A DNA stretch of 64,000 bases, taken from the NCBI GenBank assembly GCA_014729775.1, contig WJJJ01000022.1, positions 13,313 to 77,312 of the forward strand, given 5' to 3'. The DNA comes from Candidatus Omnitrophota bacterium (GTDB lineage Bacteria > Omnitrophota > Gorgyraeia > Duberdicusellales > 4484-171). The notes under the pieces were generated by a model, which saw only the letters and a program-made list of their open reading frames with translations, was not told the DNA's origin and ran no database searches. Both the position numbers and the translations under genes were made by a program. Of the stretch, positions 9,733 through 55,900 are shown piece after piece; within the stretch, counting starts at the first letter, position 1, and each line of letters begins with the position of its first letter.

Positions 9733-9749
9733 CGTGTTCCTTTCGGTAG

Positions 9750-10541: not shown

Positions 10542-10563
10542 TCCGTACTCCTTTCGCCTGCGT

Positions 10564-11448: not shown

Positions 11449-11462
11449 GGCTCACATCCTTT

Positions 11463-36062: not shown

Positions 36063-36260
36063 TTAGGAATTACGGACAAAATAGGGAGGTTCTTTCCTTT
36101 TCACCGCGAATTCGGCGAAACAAAGCGCATGGTAAGGACAGAATCGGTCTTGTGAGGAATGCGTACAGTGACCGCAGTATTTCCGGCGCAGCTCTGCGTG
36201 CTTGCGCCGGATATCCGGAACGGAGAACATCGAAAAAAAAGGGTCGTTTTTCACTTTCAT
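36063..36260 (-). CDS. Candidate small Cys-rich protein (65 aa)
   Basis: MKVKNDPFFSMFSVPDIRRKHAELRRKYCGHCTHSSQDRFCPYHALCFAEFAVKRKEPPYFVRNS. AAGGAG RBS about 10 nt upstream of the ATG. CxxC...Cx5C pattern. This is only the C-terminal part of the 224-aa track ORF; the rest is rejected. Confidence 0.3.
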   Translation of the reverse strand: MKVKNDPFFSMFSVPDIRRKHAELRRKYCGHCTHSSQDRFCPYHALCFAEFAVKRKEPPYFVRNS

Positions 36261-36788
36261 CTCTCTTGCACTCCTTGCCGGTCTCTCTTCGATGCTCCTG
36301 CGCGCGGCGGGAAACCGGGTTTTCTGGCGTGGCGCTCCCTCTCCTCCCGACACCGGAAGCAAGAGCCCCCTTCCGAAAAAGGCCTGCATGCCTCCGGCTT
36401 CCCGTCTCCCGGCGGCGCCTTCGAAAGACCGGTCCGCCCGGAAACGAGCGCCCAGAGGCACTCCGAAACGCCGATCCGCGCTCATGCTCCTCCACGGACC
36501 ACGCATCTGCTCCTCATCGAAAGACACACCGAAACGGCGGTTCATGCGAATTACCCCAATCCTCCACCAGCCACGGAAGAGGTAAGATCGGGCTTTTCTC
36601 CGAACCGTCACTGCGATCACTCTTGCGACAGGGCAACCGCGCAGCCGCAGAAAAGCGAAATAGGTATCTTCCACGGACCGTCTTTCGACACAGGCCCGGG
36701 AACCAAGGTGAACACCCCCCAGGAGCGCATTACACACCTTTATGGTGTGATATTATCACCCACATCCATTCTGTCAAGGCGCGCCGCG

Positions 36789-36823
36789 CAAAAAAAAAGG
36801 CCGCTGCGACACACGCAGCGGCC
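36789..36823 (-). terminator. Rho-independent terminator of fusA
   Basis: Minus-strand transcript reads GGCCGCUGCG-ugugu-CGCAGCGGCC followed by U9, 21 bp after the fusA stop. Confidence 0.7.
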
Positions 36824-36843: not shown

Positions 36844-38940
36844 CTAGCGGGATTTCTCCGCCTTCTTTTCCTCGATGATCTTTTCGGCAATTTCGTAAGG
36901 AACCTCGACATACTTTTCGAAATGCATACTGTAGGTCGCCCTCCCGCTGGTCAACGATCTTAAAGTAGTCGCGTATCCGAACATTTCGGAAAGCGGAGCT
37001 TCGGCCGAGATCACCTGATTGCCCGCCTTGGAATCGATCCCGAGCACTTTTCCTCTTCGGGAACACACATTGCCCACGACGCTTCCGACAAAATCCTCCG
37101 GGGTATTCACTTCCAACGACATCGAAGGCTCGAGCAATACCGGAGCACAGCGCATGAAGGCCAGCTTAAAGCATTCGCTTCCCGCGATCTTAAACGCCAT
37201 TTCCGAAGAGTCGACATCGTGGTAGGAACCGTCTACCAGATTTACCCGAACGTCAACCACCGGATACCCGGCCATAACCCCCTTCTTCATCGTTTCGATA
37301 ATCCCCTTTTCCACCGCGGGAATATATTCGCGGGGAATCGCCCCGCCGGTGATCTTGTTGTTAAACTCAAATCCTTCGCCCGGATTTGCCGGCTCGATCT
37401 CCAGCACCACATGGCCGTACTGTCCCCGCCCCCCGGTTTGCTTCGCGTATTTGTGATCCTCCCGGGTATTATTGAGAATAGTCTCTTTGTAGGCCACTTT
37501 CGGCTGACCGATCACCGCCGCAACTTTAAACTCGTGCTTCAAGCGGTCAACGATCACTTCCAAATGTAATTCTCCCATCCCGGAGAGAATCGTTTCTTCG
37601 GTTTCCTGATCAAAACCGACGGTAAAGGTGGGGTCTTCCTCTGCGAGGCGCGCGAGCGCTTTCCCTAATTTTTCCTGCTCTGCCCGGCTTTCCGGTTTAA
37701 TACTGATCGCCATCACCGGCGCGGGAAATTCGATCGCCTCAAGCAGCACCGGGTTTTCCGGATCGCATAACGTATCTCCGGTCACCGTATGATCAAGTCC
37801 GATCGCCGCGCCGATATCGCCGGCATACAGCGTCTCGCGCATTTCCCGCTGATTGGCGTGCATCTGCAAAATCCTGCCGACCCGCTCTTTCCTTCCTTTC
37901 GTGGAATTCAGCACGTACGAACCGGATTCGAGCTTTCCGGAGTAGATGCGAAAATAAATCAGCTTCCCCATATGGGGATCTGCCTGCACCTTAAACGCCA
38001 GCGCCGAAAAGCGATCGTCATCGTTCGCTTTGCGGATCACTTTTTTCTCTTTGTCATCCGGATCCATCGCCTCGGTCGGCGGAAGGTCAAGCGGCGAGGG
38101 GAGAAACCGCGTTACCGCGTCCAGCAGCCGCTGTACGCCTTTATTCTTAAACGCCGAACCGCACATAAGCGGAACGATATCGTTATTCACCGTCCCTTTC
38201 CGGATCGCTTTTTCCAGTTCCTCTTTCGAAATACTGTCTTCCGATTCCAGATATTTTTCCATCAGAGAGTCTTCCAGCTCGACTGCTTTTTCCACCATCA
38301 CGTGGTGATATTTTTTGGCCGTGTCCAGGTAGTCCGCGGGAATTTCTTCAGCATGATAATTTTTCCCGAAGGACTCGTCGTCGTAGATATACGCCTTCAT
38401 ATCCATCAAATCAATGATCCCGCGAAACTTATCCTCGGCTCCGATCGGAATCTGCAGGGGGATCACGTTCGCCTTAAGCTGATTTTCTATATTTTTCAGC
38501 ACTCCGAAGAAATCGGCACCGATCCGGTCCATCTTATTCACGAACGCGATCTTCGGTACATTATACTTTTCAGACTGCCGCCAGACGGTTTCCGACTGCG
38601 GCTCCACGCCTCCCACCGCGCAAAAAATCGCGATGGCTCCGTCCAAAACCCGCAGGGACCGCTCGACCTCTACCGTAAAATCCACGTGTCCCGGAGTATC
38701 GATGATATTAATGCGGTGATCGTTCCAGAAACAGGTCGTCGCCGCGGAAGTAATCGTGATTCCCCGCTCCTGTTCCTGCTTCATCCAATCCATCTGCGCC
38801 TGCCCGTCGTGCACCTCGCCGATTTTGTGAGTTTTCCCGGTATAATACAATACACGCTCGGTAAGAGTCGTTTTCCCCGCGTCAATATGGGCCATAATCC
38901 CGATATTGCGCACCATATGCAGTTCAACCTTTCTTGCCAT
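36844..38940 (-). CDS. fusA: Elongation factor G (canonical)
   Basis: [33 protein letters not shown] and NKMD motifs with full five-domain EF-G. Start set at MARK. Confidence 0.92.
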
Positions 38941-39008
38941 GAGTATCAATCCTCCTTAGATATTCAACGGGTCTTAAAGATGTTATTGTAATAAAAAAAG
39001 AAGAGAAA

Positions 39009-40277
39009 TCAAGTGATTTTTTGCTGCTGTGCGGCCAACTCCCGCAGCGCTCGGATACGGTTCAGCACGGGCGGATGGCTGTAGGAATAGCGCACCTTCC
39101 ATGGATGCGGGGTCAGATTGGAAAGGTTTTCCACCGTAAGTTTTTTCAACGCCGAAATAAAATCCTCTTCGTGCCCGTACGTAACCGCGGCAAACCGGTC
39201 CGCTTCGTACTCATACCGCCGTGAAAACGTGTGGGCGATTATCGAACAGGCGACACTCAGCGGGGTATAGAGAAACCCGAAAAAGATGATGCTCGCATAG
39301 ACCGACGCCTGCTCCACGCCGAATGCCGCGGCGAGATCTCGGTTACCGATAAAGAACTGCAGGATGTAAAACATCACTCCGGTGGTCGCCGCGGAAAGGA
39401 TGATCCCTTTGAGAATGTGCTTCTTTTTATAATGACCGACTTCGTGCGCGAGCACCGAAACTAATTCCGGAACGTTGAGCTTTTCAATCAGCGTGTCGAA
39501 CAGCGCGATCCGTTTATATTTCCCTAAACCGGTAAAAAACGCGTTGGATTTCGTACTTCGTCTGGAGGCATCCATCGTATATACCCCCTGCAGACGAAAA
39601 TCCTGACTCCGGGCATACTCCTCTATCGCGTTACGCAATTCTCCCTCGGGGAGCGGAACGAATTTATTGAAAAGAGGAAGGATTACCACCGGAGCGATGA
39701 ACGTCACGAACAGCTGAAACACCATTACCGCGGCCCAGCACCACAACCAGGCCTGCGCGCCGGCGGAGAGAAAAAACCACAACACCCCTGCAAACAACAT
39801 CCCGCCGAGCACGACTCCCAAAAAAAGTTCTTTCACGAAATCACCGATAAAGGTGCGTACTTTGGTTTTATTGAATCCGTACTTTTCCTCGATCACAAAA
39901 GTATGATAGGCGCGAAACGGAAGCGACATGACTTCCGAAAGGAGAAAGACGACGCCGGCAAAGAACAGCCCTGCCGCGAGCGGATTCTCCGTCAAGGCGC
40001 GGACGCCCCGGTCCAACAAGCCGAATCCGCCGCACAGGATCACTGCGACGATAATGACCGTGGACACCGTATCTTTGACCACGGAGAACCCGGTATTTTC
40101 CTTGAGATACCGCTGAGAAGTCCGATATTTGTCGGGATCATACACCCCGGCGAACTCCCGGGGAAGTTCGGTGGAGACATGCCGGACATTGCGCCACTCT
40201 ACCAGCGTATCAAGCAGATACCGGCCGACAAGAAATCCCAGTACTAAAATAAGGTATAATTGCTCCATGGGCATCAC
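39009..40277 (-). CDS. M48-family zinc metalloprotease (Ste24/HtpX-like)
   Basis: Multi-TM N-terminal region and an HEVGH zinc-binding motif. Confidence 0.85.
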   Translation of the reverse strand: MMPMEQLYLILVLGFLVGRYLLDTLVEWRNVRHVSTELPREFAGVYDPDKYRTSQRYLKENTGFSVVKDTVSTVIIVAVILCGGFGLLDRGVRALTENPLAAGLFFAGVVFLLSEVMSLPFRAYHTFVIEEKYGFNKTKVRTFIGDFVKELFLGVVLGGMLFAGVLWFFLSAGAQAWLWCWAAVMVFQLFVTFIAPVVILPLFNKFVPLPEGELRNAIEEYARSQDFRLQGVYTMDASRRSTKSNAFFTGLGKYKRIALFDTLIEKLNVPELVSVLAHEVGHYKKKHILKGIILSAATTGVMFYILQFFIGNRDLAAAFGVEQASVYASIIFFGFLYTPLSVACSIIAHTFSRRYEYEADRFAAVTYGHEEDFISALKKLTVENLSNLTPHPWKVRYSYSHPPVLNRIRALRELAAQQQKIT

Positions 40278-40523
40278 AAAAAGGAAAGTTATTATATCAG
40301 ATTCTGGTGCGGTGTCCAGCGGCAGAATTGCCGATTCTTGATCATGCGCTCTCTGGCGCCATGCGCCGCAATGCCGGCGCCCTGATGAAGAACAGCGACC
40401 AAGTGGGCGATATTGAGAATTCGGGCGATCTAAAAATAAAGAGCCTGAAACGCAATATTGGGGATAAAGAGAGAACCGCCCCCTTTTTTCGTCCCCTTTT
40501 TCAACTTGTATCTTGGCGGGCGA

Positions 40524-43500
40524 TTATCGATTAGCGGGTTCCCCGTCGTCCTCGCACGTTCCTTCCCGCTCGCACGGACGAACGGTCGCGTGACCGGCCA
40601 GCCGAAGAACGACATCATCGACGATGGCATAGATACAGGGAAGCACGACCAATGTGAGAAAGGTGGCACACACAATCCCCCACACGATTGTAAGCGCCAT
40701 CGGTTTTAAAAAAGGATCACCGCCGCCGATCCCGTACGCGGTCGGCGTCAGACCGAACGCGGTGGTAATGGTGGTCAACAGTACGGGGCGCAGACGAAGC
40801 CGGCCGGCTTCAATGATCGAATCACGCCGGTCAAACCCCTGCCGGCGCAGGTTGTTGATGAATTCGACCAATACGATCGAATCATTGACGACTATGCCCG
40901 TCAGTCCCACGATCCCCATCATCATAAAAAAACTCAACGTATATCCGTGAAAAAAGAACGCCCATACCACCCCGATTAATCCGAAGGGGATAGCCAGCAT
41001 CACCATCACCGGCTGGACCAGAGAATTAAAATTTGCCGCAAGGATAAGAAAAATAAGAAACCCGGCCAGGATAAACGCCTGGATAAAACTTCTCAGGGAA
41101 CGCACGTTTTCCTCCTGCTCCCCCGCGTATTCGATTCGGTATCCGGGATACTGCACGGGCATCTCGGAGAATTTTTCCTGGAGCTTGCGGTTGGCCTCGA
41201 AAGAGGTGATCGTTTCCGTATCTACTCCGGCCCGGACGGTAATGACCCGTTTGCCGTCTTTGTGGTTAATCCTGGCCAGCGCCACGTCTTCCTCGAGACG
41301 GGCCACCCGCGGAAGAGGAATCAGGTCGCCCTGCCGGTTCGGAATCAGGATGTGTGCGAATCCGGCTCTGGTATCGCGGTATTCGAACGGAAACCGCACC
41401 CTCACGTCAATTTCTTCCTCGGCCTTCACCGGCCGAATGGACGTAGCCACACCGCCCTTGTAGGCGGTACGGATCGAAGAAGCGACGTCACGTACGGTAA
41501 GGAACGCCCGGGCGGCCCGGTTCTTGTCCACTACGATCTTCACCTCTCCCCGGCCCAGTTCATAATCCGTCGCGATATCATGCACCCCTTCCAGAGACTG
41601 AAGATAATCTTCCACGTTTTTGGCGATTTCCTCCAGCATGGAGAATTCTTCGCCGATGATCTGCACCGCGACCGGCTTGCCCACAGGAGGCCCGGCTTGG
41701 GGTTTTTCAAAATACACTTCTTCAAAACCTTCGATCGCTTCCACCTTTGGCCGCAGCGCTTCAATGATTTCGTTCACGTCCCGTTCCCGTTCCTGATGCG
41801 GGGTCAGGTAAACCGTCACCTGCGCGATATGACTGCCTGATTTACCGTAGGGATCAAACCCCCAGGTCTCACCCAACGACCCTACCTGAGTAGTATAGGC
41901 GTCGACCTCATGTTCCGGGAGCTTCCCCACCAAAGCTTCGACCTTTTCCACCATTTCATTAGTACGGTAGAGATTGCTCCCCACCGGCATCTCGGCCCGA
42001 ATATAGAATTCTTCGATCCCTTCTTCCGACCCGAACAGCACGAAAGGCATCCGGGTCATCAGCCATATCGTGGCGCCCAGCAGGGCGAGAAACACCATCA
42101 ACGCCGTATAGCGCCGACGCAGAACCCGCCGCATCCGCCTGCTGTACCAGTCCCGGAGCCGGTTGATCCAGTGCAGTTCTTTGGAAGTTCCTTCGGAGGG
42201 AGGCATCCGCACGAAATCGGCAAAATGCGAGGGCAGAATCACAAACGCTTCGAACAGGGAACATATAAGCGCGATAATGATGACCAGCGGAATCCCCCAG
42301 ATGAATTTCCCCAGCATTCCTTCCATAAACATCAGCGGTCCGAAGGCGGCGATCGTCGTCACGATAGTGGCGGTAACCGGCTTGGCAACTTCGTTGGTGC
42401 CCGCGACCGCGGCCTCGGGCGGAGACAGCCCCCTTTCCAGATGCCGCGAACAGTTCTCGGCGACGATAATGCCGTCATCGACGAGCATTCCCAGTACGAT
42501 TATCAGTCCGAACATGGTGATCAGATTTACGCTCAGCCCCATAATGCCCATAATGGAAATGGTCGCGGCAAACGCGATGGGAAGGCTCAGCGCGGTAAGG
42601 AGCGCGATGCGGTAGTTCAGGAATACCATTAACACGCCACAGACCAGAAGAATCCCCACGATTCCGTTATTCTGCAGGACACCGAGCCGGCGTTTAATAT
42701 AGTAGGCAATATCGTTGATGTAGGAAACTTTCAGGCGTTCGTCATTCTTCCCGGTGTAATTCCCCACCCGCTCCTTTACCTCCTCGACGATCTTCACCGC
42801 GTCGCCGGTGGCGCGTTTGATCACCGTGAGATTCACCGAACGGGATCCATAACTCTTATTGATCACGTCTTCGTCTTCGAAGGTAAACCGGACGCCGGCG
42901 ACATCCCGAATCCTGAGCCAGTTCCCCGCTTCGTTGGCGCGAATTACGACGTCAGCGACCTCCTCGGCGTCATAGAATTCACCGGTGGTACGGATACTGT
43001 ATTCTTCTTTTCCTCTGATCGTTCCTCCGGGAATAGTCACGTTCCGCCGCGCCAGCGCTTCCATCACCTCTTCCATACTCACGTGTTTATCCCGCAGGAC
43101 CTCCGGATCGACTTCAACCCATACCTCCTGATCGCGCCAGCCCAGCCGGGATATGCTCGAAACTCCGGGAATGTCTTCAAGGATATCTTCAAGGCGCTCC
43201 GCGTGACCCTGGAGTTCATTTTCGCTGAGCGCACCGCTTAAGGCGACCTGGATGATGGGAATTTCGCCTGAGGTAATCTCAGTCACTATCGGCTCTTCGG
43301 CGTCCCCCGGCAGATCAGTCACCCGGTCGACCGCTTGTTTGATCTCATCGACCACTTTGTCCTTGTCTTTGACGTCCTGGGCGATATCCATCCGGACCGT
43401 GGAAAAATTGTCTCTGGACGTGGAAATCATCTCTTCGATCCCGTCGACACCCTTGAGTTCTTTTTCCAAAGGGATCGTGACCAGTTTTTCGACCTCTTTC

Positions 43501-43673
43501 GGCGGCGCGCCCGGATATGCCGTCTGCACCAGCACCACATCATAGGAAACTTCGGGGAACGCCTCCCGGCGGATCTGGTAGATAAACAGGGTATACACGC
43601 CGGCGATCAGCACAAACAGCGATATCAAATTCACCAACAGCGAATGTTTTACCGAAAATTCAGAAATCTTCAT
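40524..43673 (-). CDS. RND efflux transporter permease (HAE1/AcrB family)
   Basis: About 1050 aa with 12 TM helices and large periplasmic porter/docking domains. Start set at MKISEFSVKHSLLVN. Confidence 0.9.
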   Translation of the reverse strand: MKISEFSVKHSLLVNLISLFVLIAGVYTLFIYQIRREAFPEVSYDVVLVQTAYPGAPPKEVEKLVTIPLEKELKGVDGIEEMISTSRDNFSTVRMDIAQDVKDKDKVVDEIKQAVDRVTDLPGDAEEPIVTEITSGEIPIIQVALSGALSENELQGHAERLEDILEDIPGVSSISRLGWRDQEVWVEVDPEVLRDKHVSMEEVMEALARRNVTIPGGTIRGKEEYSIRTTGEFYDAEEVADVVIRANEAGNWLRIRDVAGVRFTFEDEDVINKSYGSRSVNLTVIKRATGDAVKIVEEVKERVGNYTGKNDERLKVSYINDIAYYIKRRLGVLQNNGIVGILLVCGVLMVFLNYRIALLTALSLPIAFAATISIMGIMGLSVNLITMFGLIIVLGMLVDDGIIVAENCSRHLERGLSPPEAAVAGTNEVAKPVTATIVTTIAAFGPLMFMEGMLGKFIWGIPLVIIIALICSLFEAFVILPSHFADFVRMPPSEGTSKELHWINRLRDWYSRRMRRVLRRRYTALMVFLALLGATIWLMTRMPFVLFGSEEGIEEFYIRAEMPVGSNLYRTNEMVEKVEALVGKLPEHEVDAYTTQVGSLGETWGFDPYGKSGSHIAQVTVYLTPHQERERDVNEIIEALRPKVEAIEGFEEVYFEKPQAGPPVGKPVAVQIIGEEFSMLEEIAKNVEDYLQSLEGVHDIATDYELGRGEVKIVVDKNRAARAFLTVRDVASSIRTAYKGGVATSIRPVKAEEEIDVRVRFPFEYRDTRAGFAHILIPNRQGDLIPLPRVARLEEDVALARINHKDGKRVITVRAGVDTETITSFEANRKLQEKFSEMPVQYPGYRIEYAGEQEENVRSLRSFIQAFILAGFLIFLILAANFNSLVQPVMVMLAIPFGLIGVVWAFFFHGYTLSFFMMMGIVGLTGIVVNDSIVLVEFINNLRRQGFDRRDSIIEAGRLRLRPVLLTTITTAFGLTPTAYGIGGGDPFLKPMALTIVWGIVCATFLTLVVLPCIYAIVDDVVLRLAGHATVRPCEREGTCEDDGEPANR

Positions 43674-45192
43674 ATAGTTCCCGTTGTGTACGCGCATCCC
43701 AATAGCGGGATAACAGCGCGTTTTTGGCCCGGCCCAGGTCGATCCGGCTCAGCCGGTAGGCGTACCACGCCCGGACCTGCTCAAGCCGCGCGTTGAGCAC
43801 GTCCTCCTGATAGCGGATTATCCGGTCACTGCTGGAGAGCCCGTCGCGGAACCGTTTCTGTTCCGCTTTCAGTTTTTCCGTTTGCAATTCCACCAGCCGC
43901 CGCGCCAGCTTCACCCGTTCCGCGTGCGCGTTGACCTGCGCCGCCAGCGTGTGCAGTTCACGGAAAATCTCCCGCTCCACCCGTTTTACGAAAAGAATGT
44001 GTTTTTGTTTCAGCGCTTCCGCCTCCGCGTATTCAGCCTCCGCTTTGGTGTTTTCCAGGGGGAACCGGATCGTAACCCCGAAAAACACCGATGAGTTATG
44101 CTCGTCACGCACCCCTTCCCAGGCCTCCCCGAAGCGGTCGCTGAGTCCGTTTTTGGCGTATGTCGCTTCAAGATCAATCTGCGGCCACAGCGAATTTTTT
44201 TTCATCGCCAGATAAATATTCTGCGAATCCAACGCGGTCCTCGCCCGCTGATAATCCCGGCGCCGAGAAACCGCCTCACGCAACTCCTCCTCCAGCGACA
44301 CCGTCTCCGGTCCGACGCGCAGTTCGTCCTGCGCGGAAACTCTCCGCTGAAAATCATCTTCATTTAATAAAAACAACAATTGGTTCTTCGCGGTTTCCCG
44401 TTCCAGGCGCGCGATGATCGCTTCTGTTTCCCTCGCCTTGACGTTCGCTTGGTGGGCAAACACTTCCGAGGGAATCGCCGTGCCCAATGCCTGTTTCTGC
44501 TCGTAGGTCCGTTGGAGCGCCCGCGCGTCGGCCAGCAATTCTTCCCGTACTTTCAGTTCTTCTTCCTGCAGAGCGAGGGTCCAGTAGGCTTCCTGCGCCT
44601 CGGCCAGAACCTGTTCAATTTCATCCAGCGACAGCCACCGGGCGCCCTCTACCGCAAGCGCGGCCCGGCGAACACCGTACCTGTCCAGAATACCGAAGAA
44701 ATTTTTCCCGATCGGCTGCACCAGACTGACCGCGACCTGCCCCTCATGGGCGGGATTCGTCGTGGAAAACGCGGAATCAGTCCAGTCCCGCGCATGCTGT
44801 CCTTCCACCGAAAGAGTGGTCCCCGTAGGCAGTGTTTTCTCCAACGAGGCCGAATACAGATTGGTGAGTTTCCTTGTCCCCAGAATGATACTGGCCGGTT
44901 TGGTCTGATCATCGGTATACCCGGCATGAAGCGCGAAATAGGTATCGAACAAAGACCGCTCCTTCGGCAGTTCCGTGCGTCCGGCGGCGTATTCATACAA
45001 AGCGATTTGCACATCAAGCGAATTCCTCAACACCAAACGGCTGATTTCCTCCAAGGAATATTTTTCCGCCCTCGTCCCCGAAAACGACTTCGAATCGGCG
45101 GCGGATACGTCCACTCCGGCGCATACCGGCACCGCCAGCATACCCCACAGGACCGCCTTTAAAAAAAGAGTGACTCTTTTACGCATTTTCAC
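43660..45192 (-). CDS. TolC-family outer membrane efflux protein
   Basis: 510 aa with signal peptide and tandem OEP repeats containing coiled-coil segments. Confidence 0.8.
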   Translation of the reverse strand: MKMRKRVTLFLKAVLWGMLAVPVCAGVDVSAADSKSFSGTRAEKYSLEEISRLVLRNSLDVQIALYEYAAGRTELPKERSLFDTYFALHAGYTDDQTKPASIILGTRKLTNLYSASLEKTLPTGTTLSVEGQHARDWTDSAFSTTNPAHEGQVAVSLVQPIGKNFFGILDRYGVRRAALAVEGARWLSLDEIEQVLAEAQEAYWTLALQEEELKVREELLADARALQRTYEQKQALGTAIPSEVFAHQANVKARETEAIIARLERETAKNQLLFLLNEDDFQRRVSAQDELRVGPETVSLEEELREAVSRRRDYQRARTALDSQNIYLAMKKNSLWPQIDLEATYAKNGLSDRFGEAWEGVRDEHNSSVFFGVTIRFPLENTKAEAEYAEAEALKQKHILFVKRVEREIFRELHTLAAQVNAHAERVKLARRLVELQTEKLKAEQKRFRDGLSSSDRIIRYQEDVLNARLEQVRAWYAYRLSRIDLGRAKNALLSRYWDARTQRELYEDF

Positions 45193-45616
45193 GGCCGGTC
45201 ATGTTTTTTAATATTTTCCTGAGGATACGCAAATACTCTTCCTGCTCGGCCCGGCTCAAACAGTCTAAGATTGTTTCCCACCTCTGCTGGATCGTCTTAC
45301 GGAACCGCTCGATGAATTCGGTGCCTTTACGGCTCAGCACCACATACACCACGCGCCGGTCCTGCTGATCTCTTTCCCGCCGCAGATACCCTTTCCGCGT
45401 AAGGCGGTCGACCACTCCCGATACCGTCGGCGCGGAAACCTGAAAATTTTCAGCGATATCGGTAAGTTTCGGCCGGTCGCTTTCCGAAATATACATCAGG
45501 GTGACAATCTGCCGGTTGGTAAGCTCCTCTATTTCAAAAAAGTTCTGGCGGATACTGACCACCAGCTTCGGGATCAACAGAGAAACTTCCCGGGCGATTT
45601 TACGCGCGTGCGTCAT
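45179..45616 (-). CDS. MarR-family transcriptional regulator
   Basis: Winged-HTH MarR pattern (LTNRQIVTLMYI...LTDIAENFQVSAPTVSGVVDRLTRKGYLRRERDQQDRR). Start set at the ATG at 45616. Confidence 0.85.
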   Translation of the reverse strand: MTHARKIAREVSLLIPKLVVSIRQNFFEIEELTNRQIVTLMYISESDRPKLTDIAENFQVSAPTVSGVVDRLTRKGYLRRERDQQDRRVVYVVLSRKGTEFIERFRKTIQQRWETILDCLSRAEQEEYLRILRKILKNMTGRENA

Positions 45617-45641
45617 ATACACACCCCCTACAAATTAATAT

Positions 45642-45709: not shown

Positions 45710-48700
45710 CTATTCCTTTTTTTCCTGTTTTTTCTCTTCTTCGATGATTTTCGCGGCAAGTTCGGAAGGAACCGGCTCATAGCGGCAGAAATGCATGGAA
45801 AACGTGGCCCGCCCGCTGCTCAGCGAACGGAAGGTCTGGGAATAGCCGAACATCTCGCCCAGCGGCGCCTCGGCTAAAATAAGTTTCTGCTTGCCCTTTT
45901 CTTCGATATTCAAAATTTTCCCGCGCCGGGAACAGATATTCCCCACGAGATTACTCACGTATTCTTCCGGCGCCATGACCTCCAGGGACATATACGGCTC
46001 CAGAAGAACCGGCTTCCCCTTCATGAACGCTTCCTTAAAACAGCCGATCGCGGCCATCTGAAACGCCAGATCGGAAGAATCAACCTCGTGATAGGACCCG
46101 TCCAGAAGCGTGACGTTGATATCCACTACCGGATACCCGGCGTACACCCCGCGCTTCATGATCGTACGCACCCCTTTCTCCACGGACGGGATATATCCTT
46201 GCGGAATGGCCCCTCCTTTTATTTTATTGTCGAAAGAGAAATCCTGTCCCCGTTCCGCCGGAGCAATACTCATGATCACATGGCCGTACTGGCCGTGTCC
46301 GCCGGTCTGCTTGACGTGCTTATATTCTCCTTCCACCTCTTCGGTGAGCGTTTCCCGGTAGGCCACTTTGGGCGGACTGACTTCGGCGTTCACCTTAAAT
46401 TCCTCTTTCAGCCGTTCCACGATTATTTCCAGATGCAATTCTCCCATTCCGGAGAGAAGGATCTCTTTCGTTTCTTTGTTGGTTTCCACGGAAAAGGTGG
46501 GGTCCTCTTCCACCAATTTCATGATTGCCTTGTTCAATTTATCCTGGTCCTGACGGGATTTCGGTTTAATACTAATCGACATCACCGGCTCCGGAAATTC
46601 CATCGTTTCCAGCAGCAGCGGACGTTCGCCGGCGCACAGCGTATCGCCGGTCACCGTTTGAGAAAACCCGATCGCCGCGGCGATATCACCGGCGTACACC
46701 CGTTTCCGGTTTTCCTTCTGATTGGCGTGCAGCTGAACAATTCTGCCCACCCGTTCCTTTCTCCCTTTATTCACGTTCATCACGTACGTCCCCGACTCGA
46801 TATATCCCGAATATACTCTGAAATACACCAGTTTCCCCACATGCGGATCCGACTGAACCTTAAAGGCGAACCCGGCAAAAGGCTCCTCCAGCGACGGAGA
46901 GACGGTAATGCTCTTCTCTTCGTCGGAAGGGTCCGTTCCCAGCACCGGAGGCAGGTCAACCGGTGCCGGCAAAAACAGATTCACCGCGTCCAGAAGCTGC
47001 TGCACGCCTTTGTTTTTTAACGCCGAACCACACAGCACCGGCACCAGCTTATTGACCACGGTCCCGCTGCGGATCGCGCCACGCAGTTCATCCTCGCTTA
47101 ACGAGTTTTCATTTTCCAAATATTTCTCCATGAGCTTTTCGTCGGTCGCGGCCGCGCGTTCCGCGAGCAGATGACGATACTCCTGTGCTTTCTCTTTATA
47201 TTCCTCCGGGATTTCAGCCTTCTTGACCTTTTTCCCGTCGGATCCGTCCTCAAAGATACAGGCCTGCATTGAAATCAAATCGATGATCCCGTGGAACTCA
47301 CTCTCGGCGCCGATGGGTATCTGCAGAGGAACGATCGCGATGCTGAATTTTGTTTCGATATCCTTCAACACCCCGTAAAAATTCGCGCCCAGCCGGTCCA
47401 TCTTATTGATGAACGCGATCTTAGGCACGTGATATTTATTTGATTGATGCCACACGGTTTCCGACTGGGCCTCTACCCCGCCCACGGCGCAAAACACCAT
47501 CACCGCGCCGTCAAGGACCCGCAGCGATCGTTCAACCTCAGCGGTGAAATCTACGTGGCCAGGCGTATCAATAATATTGATCCGTACGTCATCCCAAAAG
47601 CAGGTGGTCGCCGCCGAAGTAATCGTAATCCCCCGTTCCTGCTCCTGTTTCATCCAGTCCATTTGCGCCTGTCCGTCGTGCACCTCGCCGATCTTATGCG
47701 ATTTTCCCGTATAATACAACACCCGTTCGGTCAAGGTCGTCTTCCCGGCGTCGATATGTGCCATGATCCCGATATTCCGGACCTTGTGCAGATTCTTGGC
47801 GACTTCATCCAGCTCCTTTTTCAGTTCCGGATCGATCTCTTTTCGCTGATCCGCCCCTTCGCTCATGGCCTTTGCCGCAGGCGCCTTGCTCTCCTCCTCA
47901 GATTCATCCGGGACTTCTGTTCCCCCTTCTTCTTTTTCCGGCTCATCAGATCCCTTGCGGACTTTCCCTTCGGCTCCTTCCCGGGATTCTTCCCCTTCCG
48001 AAGACGAGGGAGCCTTTTCCGCGGCACCCTGCGCTTCCTGTTCTTCTTCTGCATCCGTCCCGCCGTCCTCTTCCGGCACGGAAGCCCGGGCCTCATTTGG
48101 TATTGCCTCAGCTTGAGCTTTCCCCGAAGCTCCTGCCGGTGCGGGCTCCGCTGGGACCTCGGCATCCTCCGCTCCGGCTGAATCGGCTTTTTCCTCTTCC
48201 GCGGCGTCGACACTGCCGGAATCCGCACCCGGTTCTTCATCGGCCTTTTCTTGCCGGACAGCGTCCGCCGCAGGCGCTTTGTCTTCTGCGTCGTCGCCGG
48301 AAGCCTCATTCCCCGCAGCTACGGTCTCGGTTTCCGGCGGTTTTTCGCCCGCCGCAGAATCACCGCCGCCATCGCCCTCGGCGCTCTCCACGGTTTCTCT
48401 CCCGGCGTCTGCTCCTTCCTCTCCCAACAGCCGCGCTAAATGCTCCTTCTGCCTCTTATACTGTCGCATCTGCTCGTCGCGTTCCAGGTACAGCTTCTGC
48501 TTGAGCTCGTGATCTTTTTCTAATTTTTCATATTCCTGCCGCAGGCTCTCGTACTGCTCTTTTATTTTTTCGAATTCCGCTTTGGATACCCATTCACTCT
48601 GCTCCAGCTTCCGCTGAAGCTGATTTGATTTCATTCGCAGCGCCTTGATCTCGCTGGTATTGGATTCGAGCGTGCTTTTAATCTCCCGAAGTTCATCGTC

Positions 48701-49165
48701 ACGCTCTTTCACCTCCTCGTCCAGCTGCGCGATACGCTTTTCGGCGTCGTCCAAAGACCGCTGAAGATTGACCTTTTTGGAAAATTCCTTTTCCAGCTCC
48801 TTTTCTTTTTTCAGAAATTTTTCTTTTAATTGCCGATTCTCTTCGACCATTTTTTCCATCTTTTCATGCTCGTGCGCATCCCATTTTTTCTGCCGGTCAA
48901 GCTCCTCCGCGAGATCCTTCTTTTTTTCGCGCAGCTGCTCCTGTTCCTTCTGCGCGGAGGAAAGCTTCCTTTTCATCTCCTCGTTCTTTTGCTTCAGCTC
49001 CACCCCTTCTTCCTTGAAAAACTCGGCGCGGCGGCGCTGCTCCTCAACCAACGCCTTATAATTCTCCCTCTGCTCCCGTTTCTTGCGTTCTTCAGGACTG
49101 TAGAACAGGTAATATACCAGTCCAAGCGCACCGACCATTAAAATGATGAATATCAGTTGCATCAC
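45710..49165 (-). CDS. Membrane-anchored coiled-coil / acidic-linker / EF-G fusion protein (EF-G paralog with a ~450-aa N-terminal extension)
   Basis: Single 1151-aa ORF. Residues 1-22 form a TM helix ([22 protein letters not shown]). Residues ~25-250 are K/E-rich heptad coiled coil. Residues ~250-450 are D/E/A/G-rich low complexity. A complete EF-G follows ([63 protein letters not shown]...DTPGHVDF...NKMD... through domain V), about 85% identical to fusA in the G domain. Confidence 0.8.
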
Positions 49166-49185
49166 GGCTTTTTTCTCCTCATTCT

Positions 49186-49220
49186 CCCCATTTGTCCACC
49201 CCGGGGGTGGACAAATGGGG
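49186..49220. repeat. REP-like 35-nt perfect palindrome (CCCCATTTGTCCACCCC-G-GGGGTGGACAAATGGGG)
   Basis: Seen directly in the sequence. Lies between the EF-G-fusion start and the RAYT stop. Confidence 0.6.
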
Positions 49221-49227
49221 GCTCAGC

Positions 49228-49872
49228 TCATTCATACAGAAGGTGCTTGATCCGCGCCAGTTTCCGCTGGTCATCGATCCGCTCCTCGGTAAAGCGCCGG
49301 TACTGCGCGGGTAAGATCTCCAGGTATTCGTCTTTGGCGCATATGTGCGTTTCAGACGCACCCTGCCCCAAATATTCCCGGTAGGACGAATATTCCCAGT
49401 CCTGCGGTCTCTCGACTAGCCCGGCGGTCACCGGATTCAGGTGCAGATACCGGGTCAAATGCAGCAGCTGCTCATCCGTTTCCACCCGCACGTTCTTGAA
49501 CCGGCCTTCCCATAACGGTCCTCTGCGGGAATGGGCGGTATTGAAATAGCGCGCGTAACTATTGGCGATATTGTTCATGAACAGAGAGATCCCGTCTTCG
49601 GCCCGCTGCGCGAGCACCAAATGAATATGGGTCGGCATCAGGCAATAGGCCACGACCGCGACGCCCTCCTTCTCTACGGACCGGCGCGGCGGACGATGCT
49701 TGCGCTGTACGAACCGGGAGAACTTCTCGCGCGGATCTGTCTGCCGGTAGTAGGTGATCGCGTCGATCATCCGGCCGTATTCGCCGGCGGTGGTAAAAAT
49801 CTCATACCCGGCAATACTCTTATTAAATACGTGATAGAGGTGACCGCTGACCAGCGGACAGGGACGCTTCAT
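49228..49872 (-). CDS. IS200/IS605-like Y1 (HUH) transposase of the REP-associated tyrosine transposase (RAYT) type
   Basis: 214 aa with HUH motif THIHLVL and a C-terminal Tyr region (WEYSSYREY). Flanked on both sides by inverted copies of the same palindrome. Confidence 0.8.
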   Translation of the reverse strand: MKRPCPLVSGHLYHVFNKSIAGYEIFTTAGEYGRMIDAITYYRQTDPREKFSRFVQRKHRPPRRSVEKEGVAVVAYCLMPTHIHLVLAQRAEDGISLFMNNIANSYARYFNTAHSRRGPLWEGRFKNVRVETDEQLLHLTRYLHLNPVTAGLVERPQDWEYSSYREYLGQGASETHICAKDEYLEILPAQYRRFTEERIDDQRKLARIKHLLYE

Positions 49873-49899
49873 AGTTCAAGTATACCCTATCGGGCCTGA

Positions 49900-49930
49900 A
49901 TTTGTCCACCCCCGGGGTGGACAAATGGGG
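49900..49930. repeat. Second REP-like palindrome (ATTTGTCCACCCC-C-GGGGTGGACAAATGGGG), inverted relative to the first
   Basis: Same arms as the 49186..49220 copy but with the complementary centre nucleotide and without the outer CCCC on the left arm. Confidence 0.6.
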
Positions 49931-49946: not shown

Positions 49947-52900
49947 TTACGGAGCTTCGGCACAGCCGATGGTCACGGTGATCGTCTGCTCGGTCTTCTC
50001 GGTATTGGGATTAGGCGCGACAAACTGCAGGTAGAGAGCCCGTTCTTCGCCGGCCGGCACGCTTTCGGCATTCGTCGCAAACCCGGCGAAAATCGCGCTG
50101 GTCGCGCTCACTTCCGACGTGGTGGCCACGTCGTCGGAGGCAAAATCAAACTGTCCGGGCACGTCGGACGTACCGCAGAAGATACACTTCATCACGTAAA
50201 TATCATTCCCCGCGGAGCTGCCCGAACTCCATGCCGCCGGATCGGTGAGCTGGGCGGAAAACTGTTCGTTCACATCGCCGTCGTTCTCGATCGTGATCTT
50301 ATCGGCCGAATCCATGGTCACCGTCTCCCCGGCACCGACGATCCCGGGAATATTCCACTCCGCCGGGACCGGATCGGTAATGAGAATACTGATCGTCTTG
50401 GTAATATCCGGCGCGTTGATCGCCTGCGAAGAATCCGTGGGTACGGGATCGGTCCCCAGCGACACCGCGCTGTCGCCGCCCTCAGAGGCGGTAAAATAAT
50501 AGGACAGGTTATCCATGACCCCGGCCGGATCCCAGGCAAAGGTCGTATCGTAATAATAGATCTTGCCGTCGCTATAATCGGTATCACCGGGATCCTCTTC
50601 AAGCATCGCGTATCCGGTCCACGCCCCCAGCCCGTTCTCGTCCAGATGGACCTGAATGCTGTCCGGCGCCTGATCACCGTAATGGGTGTACCTGACCCGG
50701 TAGCTAAAGGTGGTGGTCGTCCCGCCGATTTCCGGATCAAGCCCGTCGCCGGTATAGGCAGCGATATCGCCTACCCACTCCAGCAGAGGAACGCTCAACG
50801 CGTTTAAGTTCTCATCGGCCCCGATATCCGGCGGATCGGCCCGGGCATCGCCGTCAAAATCCGTGGTATACCCGGCAATGGCGTTACCCTGCTGCTGACA
50901 CAGCGAATCATCCTGGATATGGAGATCGGTGGACGAAGTAAACTGGGGATCCCGGGAAATCGAATTTGCATCCTGGCCGGTGCCGCTCACCCAGTCGCTG
51001 AGCTCGGCATAGGAACTGCCGCCCTGTCTGCCGGCCTGCGCGTTGTTCGGCGCGTAAAAATCGTTGTAGTCGGACGTGTAATTGGAATCGGCCGAATAAA
51101 AACAGTAATCCCCAGTGCTATTGGAACTGATGGACATGATATTGTTCTGAAAATCATTCCCGGTCCCCTGGTAATTATAGATACAGTAGTCATTGACGAT
51201 CGATACCGAGTTATAATACACTTCGGCATTCGTATTCCGGTACAGATAAATCCCGTAGCCCCCGTTCATGCCGTAGATCATGTTGTTGTACACTTTGACG
51301 GCGGCACTGTACCGGAAATAAATACCGAACCGGTCACCCTCCAGCGTGTTGTTTCTGATCTCATTGTCATTACAATTGTCGTCAAGATAGATATTCGCGT
51401 AATTCCCGCTGGTCCCGACCCCGGAAATGTAGTTGCCGTCAATCACGTTATTGGTCGCGTAGTTATGCAGGTAGATCCCGTGTTCGGTACAGGAGGTGAT
51501 ATCAAATCCCTGAATGGTGATGAAGTCGGCGCTGTTGAGATCAAACCCGTAGGTGCTGCCGTTGACCGTCACGGTTTCACCTAAAGCCTCCTGGAAGGTA
51601 ATGGTATTGGAGGAACTGGCGCCGTTGACCTCCTCCAGAGATACCTCCTCCACGTAGGTCCCGCTGTAGACGTCAAACGTCACCGCTCCGCCGACCCCCC
51701 GGTTGACCAGGTCACTCACCGCGGCGGTGAACGACACATAATCGCCGCTGCCGTCGGTCTTGATCGTGTATGTCCCCGATAACGGGGCCGGTTTGGGGTT
51801 TAAGTTTTCGTCGGCCCCGATGTCCGGCGGATCAGCCCGGGCATCCCCGTCGTAATCGTCGCTGTAACCGGCCAGGGCGGTCCCGGTATTCTGACAGGGC
51901 GATCCGTCGCCGATATGCAGATCGGTGGTGCTGGTATAGAGCGGATTGGAAGAAAACGAGTTGGCGTCCTGGCCTGTGGCAGTCTGCCAGTCGGACAGCG
52001 TAGACTGCACTCCTCCGTAATAGCCGATGCTTGCGCCGTTGGGCGCGTACATATCGTTGTAGTCGGAGGTGAACGGGTACGAAGCGATATTGCCGTCCTG
52101 GTTATAAAAACAGTAATGCCCGCTGTTGGTGGAATGATTGTACAGAATGTTATTTTGAAAATCGTTATTGGAACCCTGGAATTTCAAAACACAGCGAACC
52201 GCCATATAGATACTGTTGAAATAAAACTCGGTATCGTCACAGCGGTAGATATAGGCGCCGTATCCGGAAGTATCATAAATCATATTATTGTAAACCTTGG
52301 TGCCGTCGGCGTAATACAGGTACACCCCGTAGTAGTCTGCGGCGATCTCGTTGCCGGAAATCTCATTGTCATCACAACTCGTATCGATCCGGATCCCCGC
52401 GTAGTTGCCGCCGCTGCCGACGTTGTAGATATAATTTTCCCGGATCACGTTATTCGTCGCCCCGTCGGTGAGGTACACCCCGTGATCAGTGGTCGAGGTA
52501 ATATCGAACCCTTCTAACCGGATATAATCAGCCCCGTCCAGAAAAAAGGCGTACTGATCCCCGTTTACCAGCACCGTTTCTCCGGCCGCCTCCCGGAAAG
52601 TAATGGTGTTTGCCGCGCTGGCGCCGGCAATCGGGCCGATCTCGACCTCTTCCACGTAGTTAGCCCCGCCGTCGTCGTAGACGTCAAAGGTCACCGCGCC
52701 GTTGACCCCCAGTACTTCCAGATCGTCCACGGCCAGCGCAAACGAGGTATAATCGCCGGTCCCGTCCTGGTTAATCGTATAGCCGCCGCTCATCGGCGGA
52801 GGTACGGGGTTGGTGTTCTCGTCGGCGCCGATATCGGGCGTCGCAGCGCGGGCGTCGCCGTCGAAGTCATCACTGATCCCGGCGGCGGATATCCCCGCGC

Positions 52901-55900
52901 CCTGACAGGGGGAGGCATCGGCAATGTGCAGATCGTCTGCCGCGGTAAAACGCGGGTTCCGGTCGATGGAATTGGCGTCCTGCCCCGTGGCCGCCTGCCA
53001 GTCAGCCAGAGTTTCCTCATCGGATCCGTTATTGTAAGCCACGTGGGCGCCGGAAGGCGTATAGAAATCGTTGTAATCAGAGGTATACGGATAAGAGCCG
53101 ATCGCGCCGTCCATACGCAGACAGTAATCATTGGCGTTGGTTGACACATTGGCAAACACGTTATTCTGAAAATCATTGCCCAAACCGCGGTATTTTCGCA
53201 GACAGTAATCGCCGTCGTGCCGGATACTGTTAAAATAAAACTCGGTGTTGTCACAGCGGTTCAGATAGACACCGTAGTTGCCGGCGTTGTAAATCATGTT
53301 GTTGTAGATTTTATTCCCGTCGGCAAAGTACATGTAGATCCCGTAATAATCACCGTCGATCTCGTTCCCCGCGATTTCATTGTCGTCACAGCTGGTATCG
53401 AGCCGGATCGCCGCGTAGTTGCCGCCGGATCCGGTACTGTAGAAATAGTTGCCTTTGATCACGTTATTGGTCGCGCCGTTGACCAGATACACCGCCTCTT
53501 CGCTGGTCGAGGTGATGGTAAAGCCTTGAAGGGTAATGTAGTCGGCTCCGTCAAAATAAAACGCGTTGGCATCACCGTTGACCAGCACGCTTTCCCCGGC
53601 GGCTTCACGGAAGGTGATGGTATTACTTGAACTTGCTCCGGCGATCTCGCCGATCTCGACCTCTTCCACGTAGTTAGCCCCGCCGTCGTCGTAGACGTCA
53701 AAGATCACCGCTCCGCCGACGCCCAGCAATTCGAGATCCGCCACGGCCAGGGTAAAGGACGTGTAATCCCCGCTGCCGTCCTGATTAATGGTATAGTTTC
53801 CGCTCATCGGCGGGGGAACGGGATTGGTGTTCTCGTCGGCGCCGATATCGGGCGTCGCGGCGCGGGCGTCGCCGTCGAAGTCATCACTGATCCCGCCGGC
53901 AGAAGTCCCCGCGCCCTGACAGGGGGAGGCGTCGGCAATGTGCAGATCGTCTGCCGCGGTAAAGCGCGGGTTCTGCGAAATGGAATTGGCATCCTGCCCC
54001 GTCGCGGTCTGCCAGTCACTCAGAGCCGCCTGGTCGCTTCCGTAATAGCCGATACTGGCGCCGTTGGGCGCGTACATGTCGTTGTAGTCGGCGGTGAACG
54101 GATAGGTCGCGATGTCGCCGTCCTGGACATAAAAACAGTACCGGTTTGACGCGGTATAGGAATTGTACAACACATTATTCTGGAAATCATTACCCGTACC
54201 GCGGTATTTTTGAATACAGCGGCCGTTATCGTTGCTGATCGAATTAAAATAGCAGTCAGTGTTATTGGCCCGGTTCATGTACACGCCGTAGTAATCCACG
54301 CCGTAGATCATGTTGTTGTAAATCGTGGTACCATCGGCGAAATACAGGTACACGCCGTAATAATCACCGTCGATCTCGTTCCCCGCGATTTCATTGTCGT
54401 CACAGCTGGTATCGAGCCGGATCGCCGCGTAGTTGCCGCCGGAACCGATCCCGTAGAGATAATTGTCCTCGATCACGTTATTGCTCGCCCCGCTGGTTAA
54501 ATAAATCCCGTGCTGGGTCGTGGACGTGATGTCAAAGCCCTGTATCGTCACGTAATCGGCACCGTTGAGATAAAAAGCGTAGGTATCACCATTAATTGCC
54601 ACACTTTCCCCCGCCGCCTCCTGAAAAGTGATCGTATTGGCCGCGCTCGCCCCGCTGATTTCACTCAATTCGACTTCTTCCGGGTAAGTCGCGCCGCCGT
54701 CATCATACACGTCAAACACGACCGCACCGCCCACGCCGAGCAGATTCAAATCGCTCACCGCGTCGGAGAAAGAGGTATAATCCCCGGTCCCATCCTGTTT
54801 AATCGTGTAATTACCGCTCATCGGCGGCGGAGGCGGGTTGGTATTCTCGTCGGCGCCGATGTCCGGCGTGGCCGCGCGGGCGTCATCATCGTAGTCATCA
54901 CTCACGCCGCCGGCGGAGGTCCCCGCGCCCTGGCAGGGCGAGGCGTCGGCAATGTGCAGATCAGAGGTAGACGTAAACAGCGGGTTCTGCGAAATGGAAT
55001 TCGCATCCTCCGACGTCGCGGTCTGCCAATCGCCCAGAGTGGATTGTGCGCTTCCGTAGTAGCCGATCGAGGCGCCGTTGGGCGCGTACAGGTCGTTGTA
55101 ATCGGAGCTGAACGAATAGGTCGCTTTATCGCCGTCAGCGTTGTAAAAACAGTAATATCCGGAGTTTGTGGAATTGTTATACAAAATATTATTTTGAAAT
55201 TCATTCCCCGTGCCGCGGTATTTGTACAGAGAACGGCCGATGTCGCTATAGACCGAATTAAAATACACCCCGGTATCGTCGCAGCGGTTCATGTAAATCC
55301 CGTAGTAGTTCACCTCGTAAATCATATTGTTGTACACCTGTGTCCGGTCCGCCAGAAGCAGGTAGAGACCGTAATAGTCCCCTTCGATCGTATTCGCCGA
55401 CACTTCGTTATCGTGACAGCCGGTATCGATCCGGACGCTGGCGTAATTCCCCGAAGTACCGGCATCGTATATATAGGTGTCGCGCAGAATGTTGTTGGTC
55501 GCGCCGTTGGTCATATACACGCCGTGCTCGGTACAACTGGTAATCTCGAAATCTTCAATTATGACGTAGTCAGCCCCGTTAAGATAAAAACCGTACACAT
55601 CGCCGTTCACCAAAACGCTTTCCCCGGCGGCTTCGCGAAAGGTAATGGTATTGGAAGAGCCTGCACCCACGATTTCCGGAATCTCCACCTCTTCGGTATA
55701 AGTACCTCCGCCGTCGTCGTACACGTCGAAGGTCACCGCGCCGCTCACGCCCAGGGCGTCAAGGTTATCGACCGCGAGACTAAACGAGGTATAGTCTCCG
55801 GAACCGTCCTGATTAATCGTGTAACTGCCGCTCATCGGCGGCGGCGGGGCGTTGAGATTTTCATCGGCGCCGATATCGGGCGTCGCCGCGCGCGCGTCGC

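Follow-up and report, generated by a model that had tools for sequence, protein, structure and literature searches.

Elongation factor G (EF-G) is usually treated as a freely diffusing cytoplasmic factor, needed by every ribosome once per codon. The locus described here raises the question of whether a bacterium can instead hold such a factor at its membrane. The DNA analysed is a stretch of 64,000 nucleotides from Candidatus Omnitrophota bacterium (NCBI GenBank assembly GCA_014729775.1, contig WJJJ01000022.1, positions 13,313 to 77,312 of the forward strand; hereafter the window), in which a single open reading frame (ORF) of 1151 amino acids (45710..49165, minus strand) encodes a predicted transmembrane (TM) anchor, a long coiled coil, an acidic linker and a complete canonical EF-G. 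A first-pass annotation made from the sequence alone had proposed this arrangement, and Pfam, TIGR00484, AlphaFold2 and the periodicity of the coiled coil all agree with it. As described below, the architecture recurs in more than 100 independent assemblies, and its N-terminal part is a conserved module that also occurs without EF-G. A conserved membrane-tethered canonical EF-G, if true, would demonstrate that an elongation factor can be spatially confined in a bacterial cell.

A complete EF-G follows an anchored coiled coil

By every sequence test run, the body of the protein, which we call the long EF-G, belongs to the EF-G family. The EF-G equivalog model TIGR00484 gives 1013.4 bits against a cut-off of 659.4, spanning positions 6-690 of its 691 and residues 458-1145 of the protein, and GTP_EFTU, GTP_EFTU_D2/EF-G_D2, EFG_III, EFG_IV and EFG_C all pass their Pfam cut-offs. 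The Pfam matches place the G domain with its G' insert, including SALKNKG, at residues 461-733 (46967..47785; this and all further coordinates within the gene are on the minus strand), domain II at residues 762-845 (46631..46882), domain III (EFG_III) at residues 857-930 (46376..46597), domain IV (EFG_IV), with the tip loops GGHGQYGH and SYHEVDSS, at residues 932-1050 (46016..46372), and domain V (EFG_C), which includes K1094, at residues 1053-1138 (45752..46009). The GTPase motifs G1-G5, the catalytic His of DTPGH and the domain-IV tip loops, (H/R)GQYGH and SYHEVDSS, are all present, and most of the GTPase and domain-IV motifs are invariant over 78 long homologues; the R957H state of the window protein is the minority one (14 H against 103 R among long forms). 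AlphaFold2 models this body as well folded, with a predicted local distance difference test score (pLDDT) of ~90, and connects it to the linker by a short helix at residues 446-461.

The nearest PDB matches found with phmmer are the EF-Gs of Thermus and E. coli, at 814-830 bits. Models of related factors are not passed: those of EF-G2-like proteins remain under their cut-offs (NF009377, 535 versus 890; NF058620, 505 versus 1000; NF009892, 233 versus 640), as do those of RF3 (279 versus 473), LepA (TIGR01393, 176 versus 534) and BipA (213 versus 757). The tetracycline ribosomal protection model NF012153 (tet_protect) likewise gives 426 bits against a cut-off of 775, so that a Tet(M)-like protein, as one form of the ribosome-targeting stress or defence factor that the first-pass annotation had raised, is not supported.

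Canonical EF-G, as represented by the Thermus thermophilus (1DAR/1EFG) and E. coli (2RDO) structures, thus has its five domains, its G motifs, the His of DTPGH and the domain-IV tip loops in common with the long EF-G. What differs is the N-terminus: canonical EF-G is a soluble protein of ~700 amino acids with ~10 residues ahead of the G domain, whereas the long EF-G has 445 more, TM helix included, and so departs from the usual soluble form, which is a typical trait of EF-G and not a formally defining one. Engineered chimeras in which L9 is fused to the N-terminus of EF-G are found in solved ribosome complexes (4wpo and five further PDB entries); hence, an N-terminal fusion on EF-G is compatible with ribosome binding.

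The protein begins with a predicted signal-anchor TM helix at residues 2-24 (49094..49162), which AlphaFold2 models as a helix at residues 2-21. The N-terminus is an uncharged stretch of 24 residues, with no Lys or Arg ahead of it and seven within the following 20 residues. An N-terminal hydrophobic helix with the same charge pattern is found in 109 of 116 long homologues, and in these 109 the average number of Lys/Arg is 0.08 ahead of the helix and 5.7 within the next 20 residues. Given that a basic n-region is missing, that the hydrophobic stretch is ~24 residues long and that highly charged sequence follows, this is best taken as an anchor and not as a cleavable Sec signal. By the positive-inside rule, the predicted topology is N-out/C-in, with a short N-tail outside and all remaining parts in the cytoplasm.

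Beyond the anchor, AlphaFold2 predicts two long helices, at residues 32-189 (48599..49072) and 195-249 (48419..48583), both with heptad periodicity and together forming a coiled coil of ~218 residues. Hydrophobic residues recur in both with a period of exactly 3.5 residues (z=10 for the first and z=4 for the second), and a single unbroken heptad phase runs across residues 32-190 before shifting at the conserved SEWVS kink (residues 190-194, 48584..48598). In the second coil the window protein carries an exact one-heptad insertion relative to its homologues (KLEKDHE, residues 214-220). Three residues are invariant or near-invariant in the long forms, namely W95 and, within the motif SEWV[PAST]K.[ED][FY], W192 and V193; furthermore, a KEKELxxEFSKNVxL block (K120, L124, F128, V132) is conserved in the first helix. 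Within this block F128 occupies an e and V132 a b heptad position, that is, off the core, which suggests a candidate surface for binding a partner. Family-wide, the a positions are 58% Leu/Ile/Val plus 8% Asn and the d positions 36% Leu, a composition that by established coiled-coil rules would fit a parallel, probably dimeric stalk. The kink holds the second copy of an EWV.K motif that occurs twice, ~98 residues apart, and hhalign of the two coil halves gives a probability of 75% (E 2.6e-5), scores of a kind that coiled-coil composition inflates; this is suggestive only of an internal duplication of the coiled coil.

The acidic linker, rich in Asp, Glu, Ala, Gly, Pro and Ser, occupies residues 250-445 (47831..48418) and is predicted to be disordered (pLDDT<30 at residues 250-443). 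Counted from residue 248 to the start of the G domain, it comprises 210 amino acids, of which 31% are Asp/Glu, 10% Lys/Arg and 46% Pro/Gly/Ala/Ser, and is among the longest in the family (median 92, range 52-254). Across the family the sequence and length of the linker vary freely, while its net charge is always negative or neutral.

The N-terminal extension is part of the gene

Public records appear to tell a different story. The NCBI record of the window protein (P0001) begins at Met434 (47864..47866) and comprises 718 amino acids. In the complete genome CP070797.1 (L005), the NCBI call at 10454-12847 (797 amino acids) covers part of a true ORF at 9692-12847 (1051 amino acids), and the 824-amino-acid record of another homologue (P0020) likewise starts inside its ORF. 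On such lengths it could be argued that the true gene is an EF-G of ~700-718 amino acids and that the 430 codons upstream are either non-coding or a separate gene wrongly joined to it. We regard this as extremely improbable, and the comparative data already exclude it. Each homologue search listed its best 120 matches; for the full protein, ~110 of these are 970-1180 amino acids long and have a hydrophobic N-terminal helix followed by Lys/Arg-rich sequence. Seven homologues align over 95-100% of the window protein at 49-55% identity, and more than 100 independent assemblies have the frame open and uninterrupted, among them CP070797.1 with its full 1051-amino-acid ORF. The first-pass annotation had itself considered a frameshift or an assembly join. 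This is excluded by the full-length homologues together with a 93.5-kb NCBI contig, on which the identical C-terminal 718 amino acids and the short fusA copy of the window both lie.

The ratio of non-synonymous to synonymous substitution rates (dN/dS) was estimated by the Nei-Gojobori method from close gene pairs in public genomes, using only pairs with unsaturated dS. It is 0.11-0.15 for the TM helix and coiled coil, 0.22-0.37 for the linker and 0.02-0.05 for the EF-G part. Since these values are well below 1 in all three segments, the whole frame must be translated and under constraint, and the TM helix, heptads and motifs of the extension are conserved besides.

Translation would start at GTG 49165 or at the directly adjacent ATG 49162; a Shine-Dalgarno sequence, GAGGAG, can be read at 49175..49180, 9 nucleotides before the GTG and 12 before the ATG. 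In many other genomes the start codon of the long EF-G overlaps the stop codon of rarA, and this sets the TM helix as the N-terminal end of the protein. The internal Met that the first-pass annotation had put forward as a possible second start does exist, as Met434, and is the one used by NCBI, but nearly all homologues have gaps in the alignment columns where it lies, and the sole Shine-Dalgarno-like sequence upstream of it, GAGGAGGAG, lies ~19-27 nucleotides away, too distant for normal spacing. As a conserved second start it is unsupported, although this one gene may use it. The truncated NCBI calls lack the TM helix and some or all of the coiled coil. Evidently, homology-guided start calling conceals the extension in public records; the architecture is under-reported there and re-annotation is due.

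The TM-coiled-coil module is a family of its own

We defined the N-terminal module by a TM helix, a Trp at about position 95, the KEKELxxEFSKNVxL block and the SEWV[PAST]K.[ED][FY] motif, all within ~240 amino acids. With a profile made from 24 members, one of them the window protein, the window ORF scores 213 bits (E 1e-64) over model positions 1-239, and nothing else in the window matches. Among the curated families of Pfam and NCBIfam, the module finds only sub-threshold coiled-coil matches (ATG16, 20.8 versus 33.7; SMC, 25 versus 567).

Searched against 1.84 billion representative proteins, the module profile finds 280 representatives at E<=1e-10, many of them short proteins. One short group of ~225 amino acids, with a TM helix and the same Trp and WV[AS]K motifs, forms a more distant family; its four members with source names are hypothetical proteins from metagenome-assembled genomes (MAGs) of Omnitrophica/Omnitrophota. 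At two loci of this ~225-amino-acid family (L086, 8001-8684; L087, 8001-8711), the module gene has a conserved context, with the gene order HD hydrolase, M48 peptidase, PAS histidine kinase, Hpt, module, aminotransferase. The recurrence of M48 peptidases near module genes and in the window may be chance.

A scan of species-representative genomes (one genome per species), made with a 6-sequence N-terminal alignment and thus yielding a sample biased to the SEWVPK clade, found at least 96 loci that encode the module. The 80 loci kept for analysis are nearly all titled Omnitrophota or Omnitrophica, with a few MAGs labelled otherwise. In 65 of them the module is fused to EF-G, in 13 the protein stops after the module and a tail of 1-103 residues, and two are cut by a contig end. 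The main clade keeps the gene in a conserved slot, pheT-rarA-X-PPIase (59 of ~75 loci), and in nine species X consists of the module and an acidic tail alone (L023, L027, L028, L030, L046, L047, L053, L057 and L058); there the PPIase gene begins ~2.1 kb earlier, which is the exact size of the missing EF-G part. Four further loci, separate from these nine, also encode the module alone (L034, L049, L075 and L082). The standalone modules are 220-343 amino acids long and their nearest relatives are fused forms, at 63-68% identity. On the simplest reading, the EF-G part was lost secondarily, probably more than once.

The module would therefore seem to be an autonomous membrane protein family, one that in the labelled records is apparently specific to Omnitrophota. 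The first-pass annotation had made no mention of this conserved and separable part of the protein. A new membrane coiled-coil family is hereby defined, and its EF-G partner hints at a ribosome-related role.

Long and short EF-G are old paralogues

The window also encodes a short, soluble-type fusA paralogue: an ORF of 701 amino acids (698 according to NCBI) at 36844..38949 (minus strand), with an intrinsic terminator 3' of it at ~36790-36823. A 224-codon ORF 3' of this terminator (36063-36737, minus strand) was considered as a standalone module and rejected; it is Arg-rich, has no TM helix, coiled coil or family match, and is probably no gene.

The long and short copies align without gaps at 65% identity overall. 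The first-pass annotation had put the identity of their G domains at about 85% and had taken the long copy for a recent duplicate. The former figure holds for the G core alone (86% at residues 459-608), since G' is 50% and the whole G domain 72% identical, and the latter claim is contradicted by the phylogeny. An unrooted neighbour-joining tree of 236 EF-G bodies, computed without bootstrap support or outgroup, contains one split that groups all 119 short forms with one long form (P0154) and sets them apart from the remaining 116 long forms. Mean identity is 70% between long forms, 77.5% between short forms and 68% between the two; for the long copy of the window, identity reaches 74% with the long copies of other species, against 65% with the short copy in the same genome. 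Hence, the paralogues are old, and the architecture belongs to the lineage as a whole and is no oddity of a single genome. Orthologues of the short copy have 74-80% identity to it among the matches listed, and the named ones are nearly all from Omnitrophota/Omnitrophica.

The exceptional P0154 (1029 amino acids) is a TM-anchored long form with a short-type body, 82-83% identical to the short proteins P0061, P0062 and P0210, which suggests gene conversion or a module swap between the paralogues.

One alignment column alone cleanly separates the two groups, in domain V, where the long forms have Lys (K1094) and the short forms Gln (Q645). With one diagnostic site only, the catalytic body can be said to have remained canonical; what is new is the tether at the N-terminus. 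The few sites that short EF-Gs keep invariant and long ones have relaxed cluster in G' (residues 615-686), the subdomain that contacts the L7/L12 stalk.

Comparison with known systems

Other bacteria and organelles also maintain more than one EF-G gene per genome over long periods, as in Borrelia, in mitochondria and, with EF-G2, in Thermus. The members of those pairs are soluble and have diverged in the catalytic body, whereas the Omnitrophota bodies are nearly interchangeable and it is the tether that differs. In layout the long EF-G resembles FtsY, the translation-linked GTPase that serves as SRP receptor, in which an N-terminal membrane-targeting element and an acidic low-complexity domain precede a GTPase. 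FtsY, however, belongs to the unrelated SRP54-type NG family, lacks a long coiled coil and acts in targeting, and no homology between the two was detected. In proteins of the RNase Y/EzrA type, one TM anchor at the N-terminus is followed by a stalk, helical or coiled, that presents a cytoplasmic domain at the membrane. This is the same topological scheme as that of the long EF-G, but the catalytic domains differ and no homology of the stalks was detected. An RNase Y-like gene is found near some of the module loci.

To our knowledge, LepA (EF4) has no TM helix and associates with the membrane peripherally. It is nonetheless a translational GTPase of the EF-G family that has been reported at the bacterial membrane (PMC4324249). 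It lacks the EF-G domain IV, which the long EF-G has, and its function is different. The closest functional analogue of a tethered EF-G is the anchoring of eEF1B by kinectin: kinectin (KTN1) and p180 (RRBP1) are N-terminally anchored long coiled-coil proteins of the endoplasmic reticulum (ER) that hold elongation-factor machinery or ribosomes (PMC13231004, PMC12768868, PMC3326322). The kinectin system differs in being eukaryotic and non-covalent and in holding the exchange factor of eEF1A rather than the translocase, and it gives only sub-threshold coiled-coil matches to the module.

In open-access papers and bioRxiv, Omnitrophota genome papers included, we found no description of an N-extended or membrane-anchored EF-G or of Omnitrophota EF-G. 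The first-pass annotation was thus right to call the architecture unusual for a translational GTPase: in the literature searched the tether has no described counterpart among these proteins, while the body itself is a known family. The locus gives a natural setting in which to ask whether cells organise elongation with respect to the membrane, a question of relevance to a phylum of ultra-small cells and giant proteins.

What the tethered EF-G might do

We propose, with moderate confidence, that the protein is a tethered but otherwise normal EF-G, a translocase and recycling GTPase, carried on an Omnitrophota-specific membrane coiled-coil module and serving ribosomes at or near the membrane. 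By our own estimate the stalk would measure ~32 nm (23.5 + 8 nm) if both helices are collinear, and the acidic leash would add between ~12 nm (as a random coil) and ~70 nm (as contour length). The EF-G head would then carry out ordinary translocation and recycling no farther than tens of nm from the membrane, on ribosomes such as those making membrane or exported proteins. In evolutionary terms EF-G would be a cargo added to an autonomous module, and several lineages would later have lost the EF-G and kept the module. The conserved off-core residues on the surface of the stalk suggest a site at which it could bind a partner.

Most Omnitrophota cells are ~0.2 µm across (PMC10066038). A leash that reaches most of such a cell softens the apparent conflict with the need of EF-G to visit every ribosome.

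Several points weigh against this proposal. Given that same reach, selection may have favoured the tether for something other than keeping the factor at the membrane. The predicted dimer and the stalk geometry derive from heptad composition and a monomeric AlphaFold2 model, and the helix at residues 195-249 might fold back on the first helix. The module is kept without EF-G in 13 of the 80 species, so that the fusion is dispensable in some lineages. Among the contexts of the gene (rarA/pheST; fusA-spoU-PG_binding; and the REP-RAYT element and efflux operon described below), none suggests secretion or membrane-protein biogenesis. Finally, a simple division of labour between the paralogues is complicated by the report that in some Omnitrophota an EF-G gene lies inside an S12-S7-EF-G-EF-Tu operon (preprint 10.64898/2026.06.07.730766). 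The short orthologues inspected lie outside any such operon, and a third EF-G copy may be present elsewhere in the source genome.

The same material allows a bolder version of the tethered translocase, which we offer tentatively and consider rather doubtful. The module with its covalently attached EF-G might be a bacterial counterpart of ER-type anchoring, organising ribosomes and elongation under the membrane, with the conserved motif on the outer face of the stalk binding a further partner. If true, such anchoring might help the cell to make and export the very long membrane and surface proteins that typify the phylum; alternatively, it might ensure that an essential factor present in few copies is supplied and partitioned in cells of ~0.2 µm.

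Three other readings of the fusion differ in what they take the EF-G head to be for. The TM-coiled-coil scaffold could be the functional unit, with EF-G mainly a GTP-gated ribosome-binding head that parks ribosomes at the membrane for peripheral organisation, hibernation or partitioning and contributes little to bulk translocation. The independence of the module as a conserved family also found without EF-G fits this, as do the outer e and b positions of F128 and V132, suggestive of a partner-binding site, and the clustering of the relaxed sites of the long form in G' (residues 615-686). Moreover, the window and both related genomes examined (L004 and L005) encode a separate short EF-G, of a kind more conserved than the long one (mean identity 77.5% versus 70%). 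However, the EF-G part evolves at a dN/dS of 0.02-0.05 and has kept every catalytic and domain-IV tip motif, which is more than binding should need, and we consider this reading rather unlikely. The protein could also be a latent or dual-form factor, stored at the membrane and freed as soluble EF-G by proteolysis of the linker or by internal initiation under some condition. The linker is long and, in the AlphaFold2 model, disordered and exposed, Met434 lies ~25 residues ahead of the G domain and is the start chosen by the NCBI pipeline, and an M48 peptidase gene is found at 39009-40277, as are M48 genes near those of the standalone 225-amino-acid modules. There is also a precedent in EF4, which has been described as membrane-stored and stress-released (PMC4324249). 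Set against this, Met434 is unconserved and has no well-spaced Shine-Dalgarno sequence, no conserved cleavage motif is visible in the freely varying linker, and the M48 genes at the two kinds of loci are of different subtypes, so that their proximity may be chance; on balance we judge a dual-form factor to be unlikely.

That the long EF-G is simply a specialised paralogue, devoted to recycling only or to translocation only as are EF-G1 and EF-G2 of Borrelia or mitochondria, with the tether being secondary, strikes us as very unlikely. Subfunctionalised EF-G pairs are established, Omnitrophota have at least two and possibly three EF-G genes, and one PDB match is the mitochondrial 'ribosome-releasing factor 2'. 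Nevertheless, the known pairs are far more divergent than the present one, which is 65-68% identical and separated by a single discriminating residue, and matches to the EF-G2 type are low (NF009377, 535 versus 890; 1wdt, 403 bits). A tethered, otherwise normal EF-G is the interpretation that we favour.

Gene neighbourhood

Upstream of the long EF-G in the window lies an element of repetitive extragenic palindromes (REPs) and a RAYT gene. The latter, an IS200-like Y1 transposase gene at 49228-49872 (minus strand), matches PF01797 (Y1_Tnp) with 34.2 bits against a cut-off of 23 and also matches REP_Tyr_transpos; with the RAYT model NF047646 it reaches 69.9, under the cut-off of 80. REP palindromes flank it on both sides. 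One, at ~49895-49929, lies beyond the gene, and the other, at 49186..49220, lies between the RAYT stop and the EF-G start, outside the protein, and ends 21-22 nucleotides before the start codon. The REP 16-mer CCCATTTGTCCACCCC occurs three times in the window against 0.07 expected. The first-pass annotation had drawn attention to the adjacent RAYT and to a palindrome about 20 bp upstream, and both are there as described. Their adjacency is incidental: in other genomes no REP is found by the long EF-G, which there follows rarA or fusA-spoU-PG_binding.

The long and short EF-G genes of the window are 6.8 kb apart. Between them, at 39009-45622 (minus strand), are an efflux operon, with genes for a MarR regulator, a TolC-like outer-membrane factor and an RND permease, and the gene of the M48 peptidase (39009-40277), which is Ste24-like with five N-terminal TM helices. 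Relatives of the window's clade have the short fusA, a SpoU methyltransferase gene, PG_binding and the long EF-G, in an order reversed with respect to the window. Given this reversal and the efflux and M48 genes between the two copies, the region has been rearranged in the window.

Directly upstream of the long EF-G and its RAYT element, on the same strand, is a giant ORF of 4571 amino acids (49947-63662, minus strand), made up of many tandem units of ~330 amino acids of the right-handed beta-helix/NosD type. Giant proteins are a reported trait of Omnitrophota, and at another locus (L003) a giant gene of more than 3371 amino acids follows the long EF-G.

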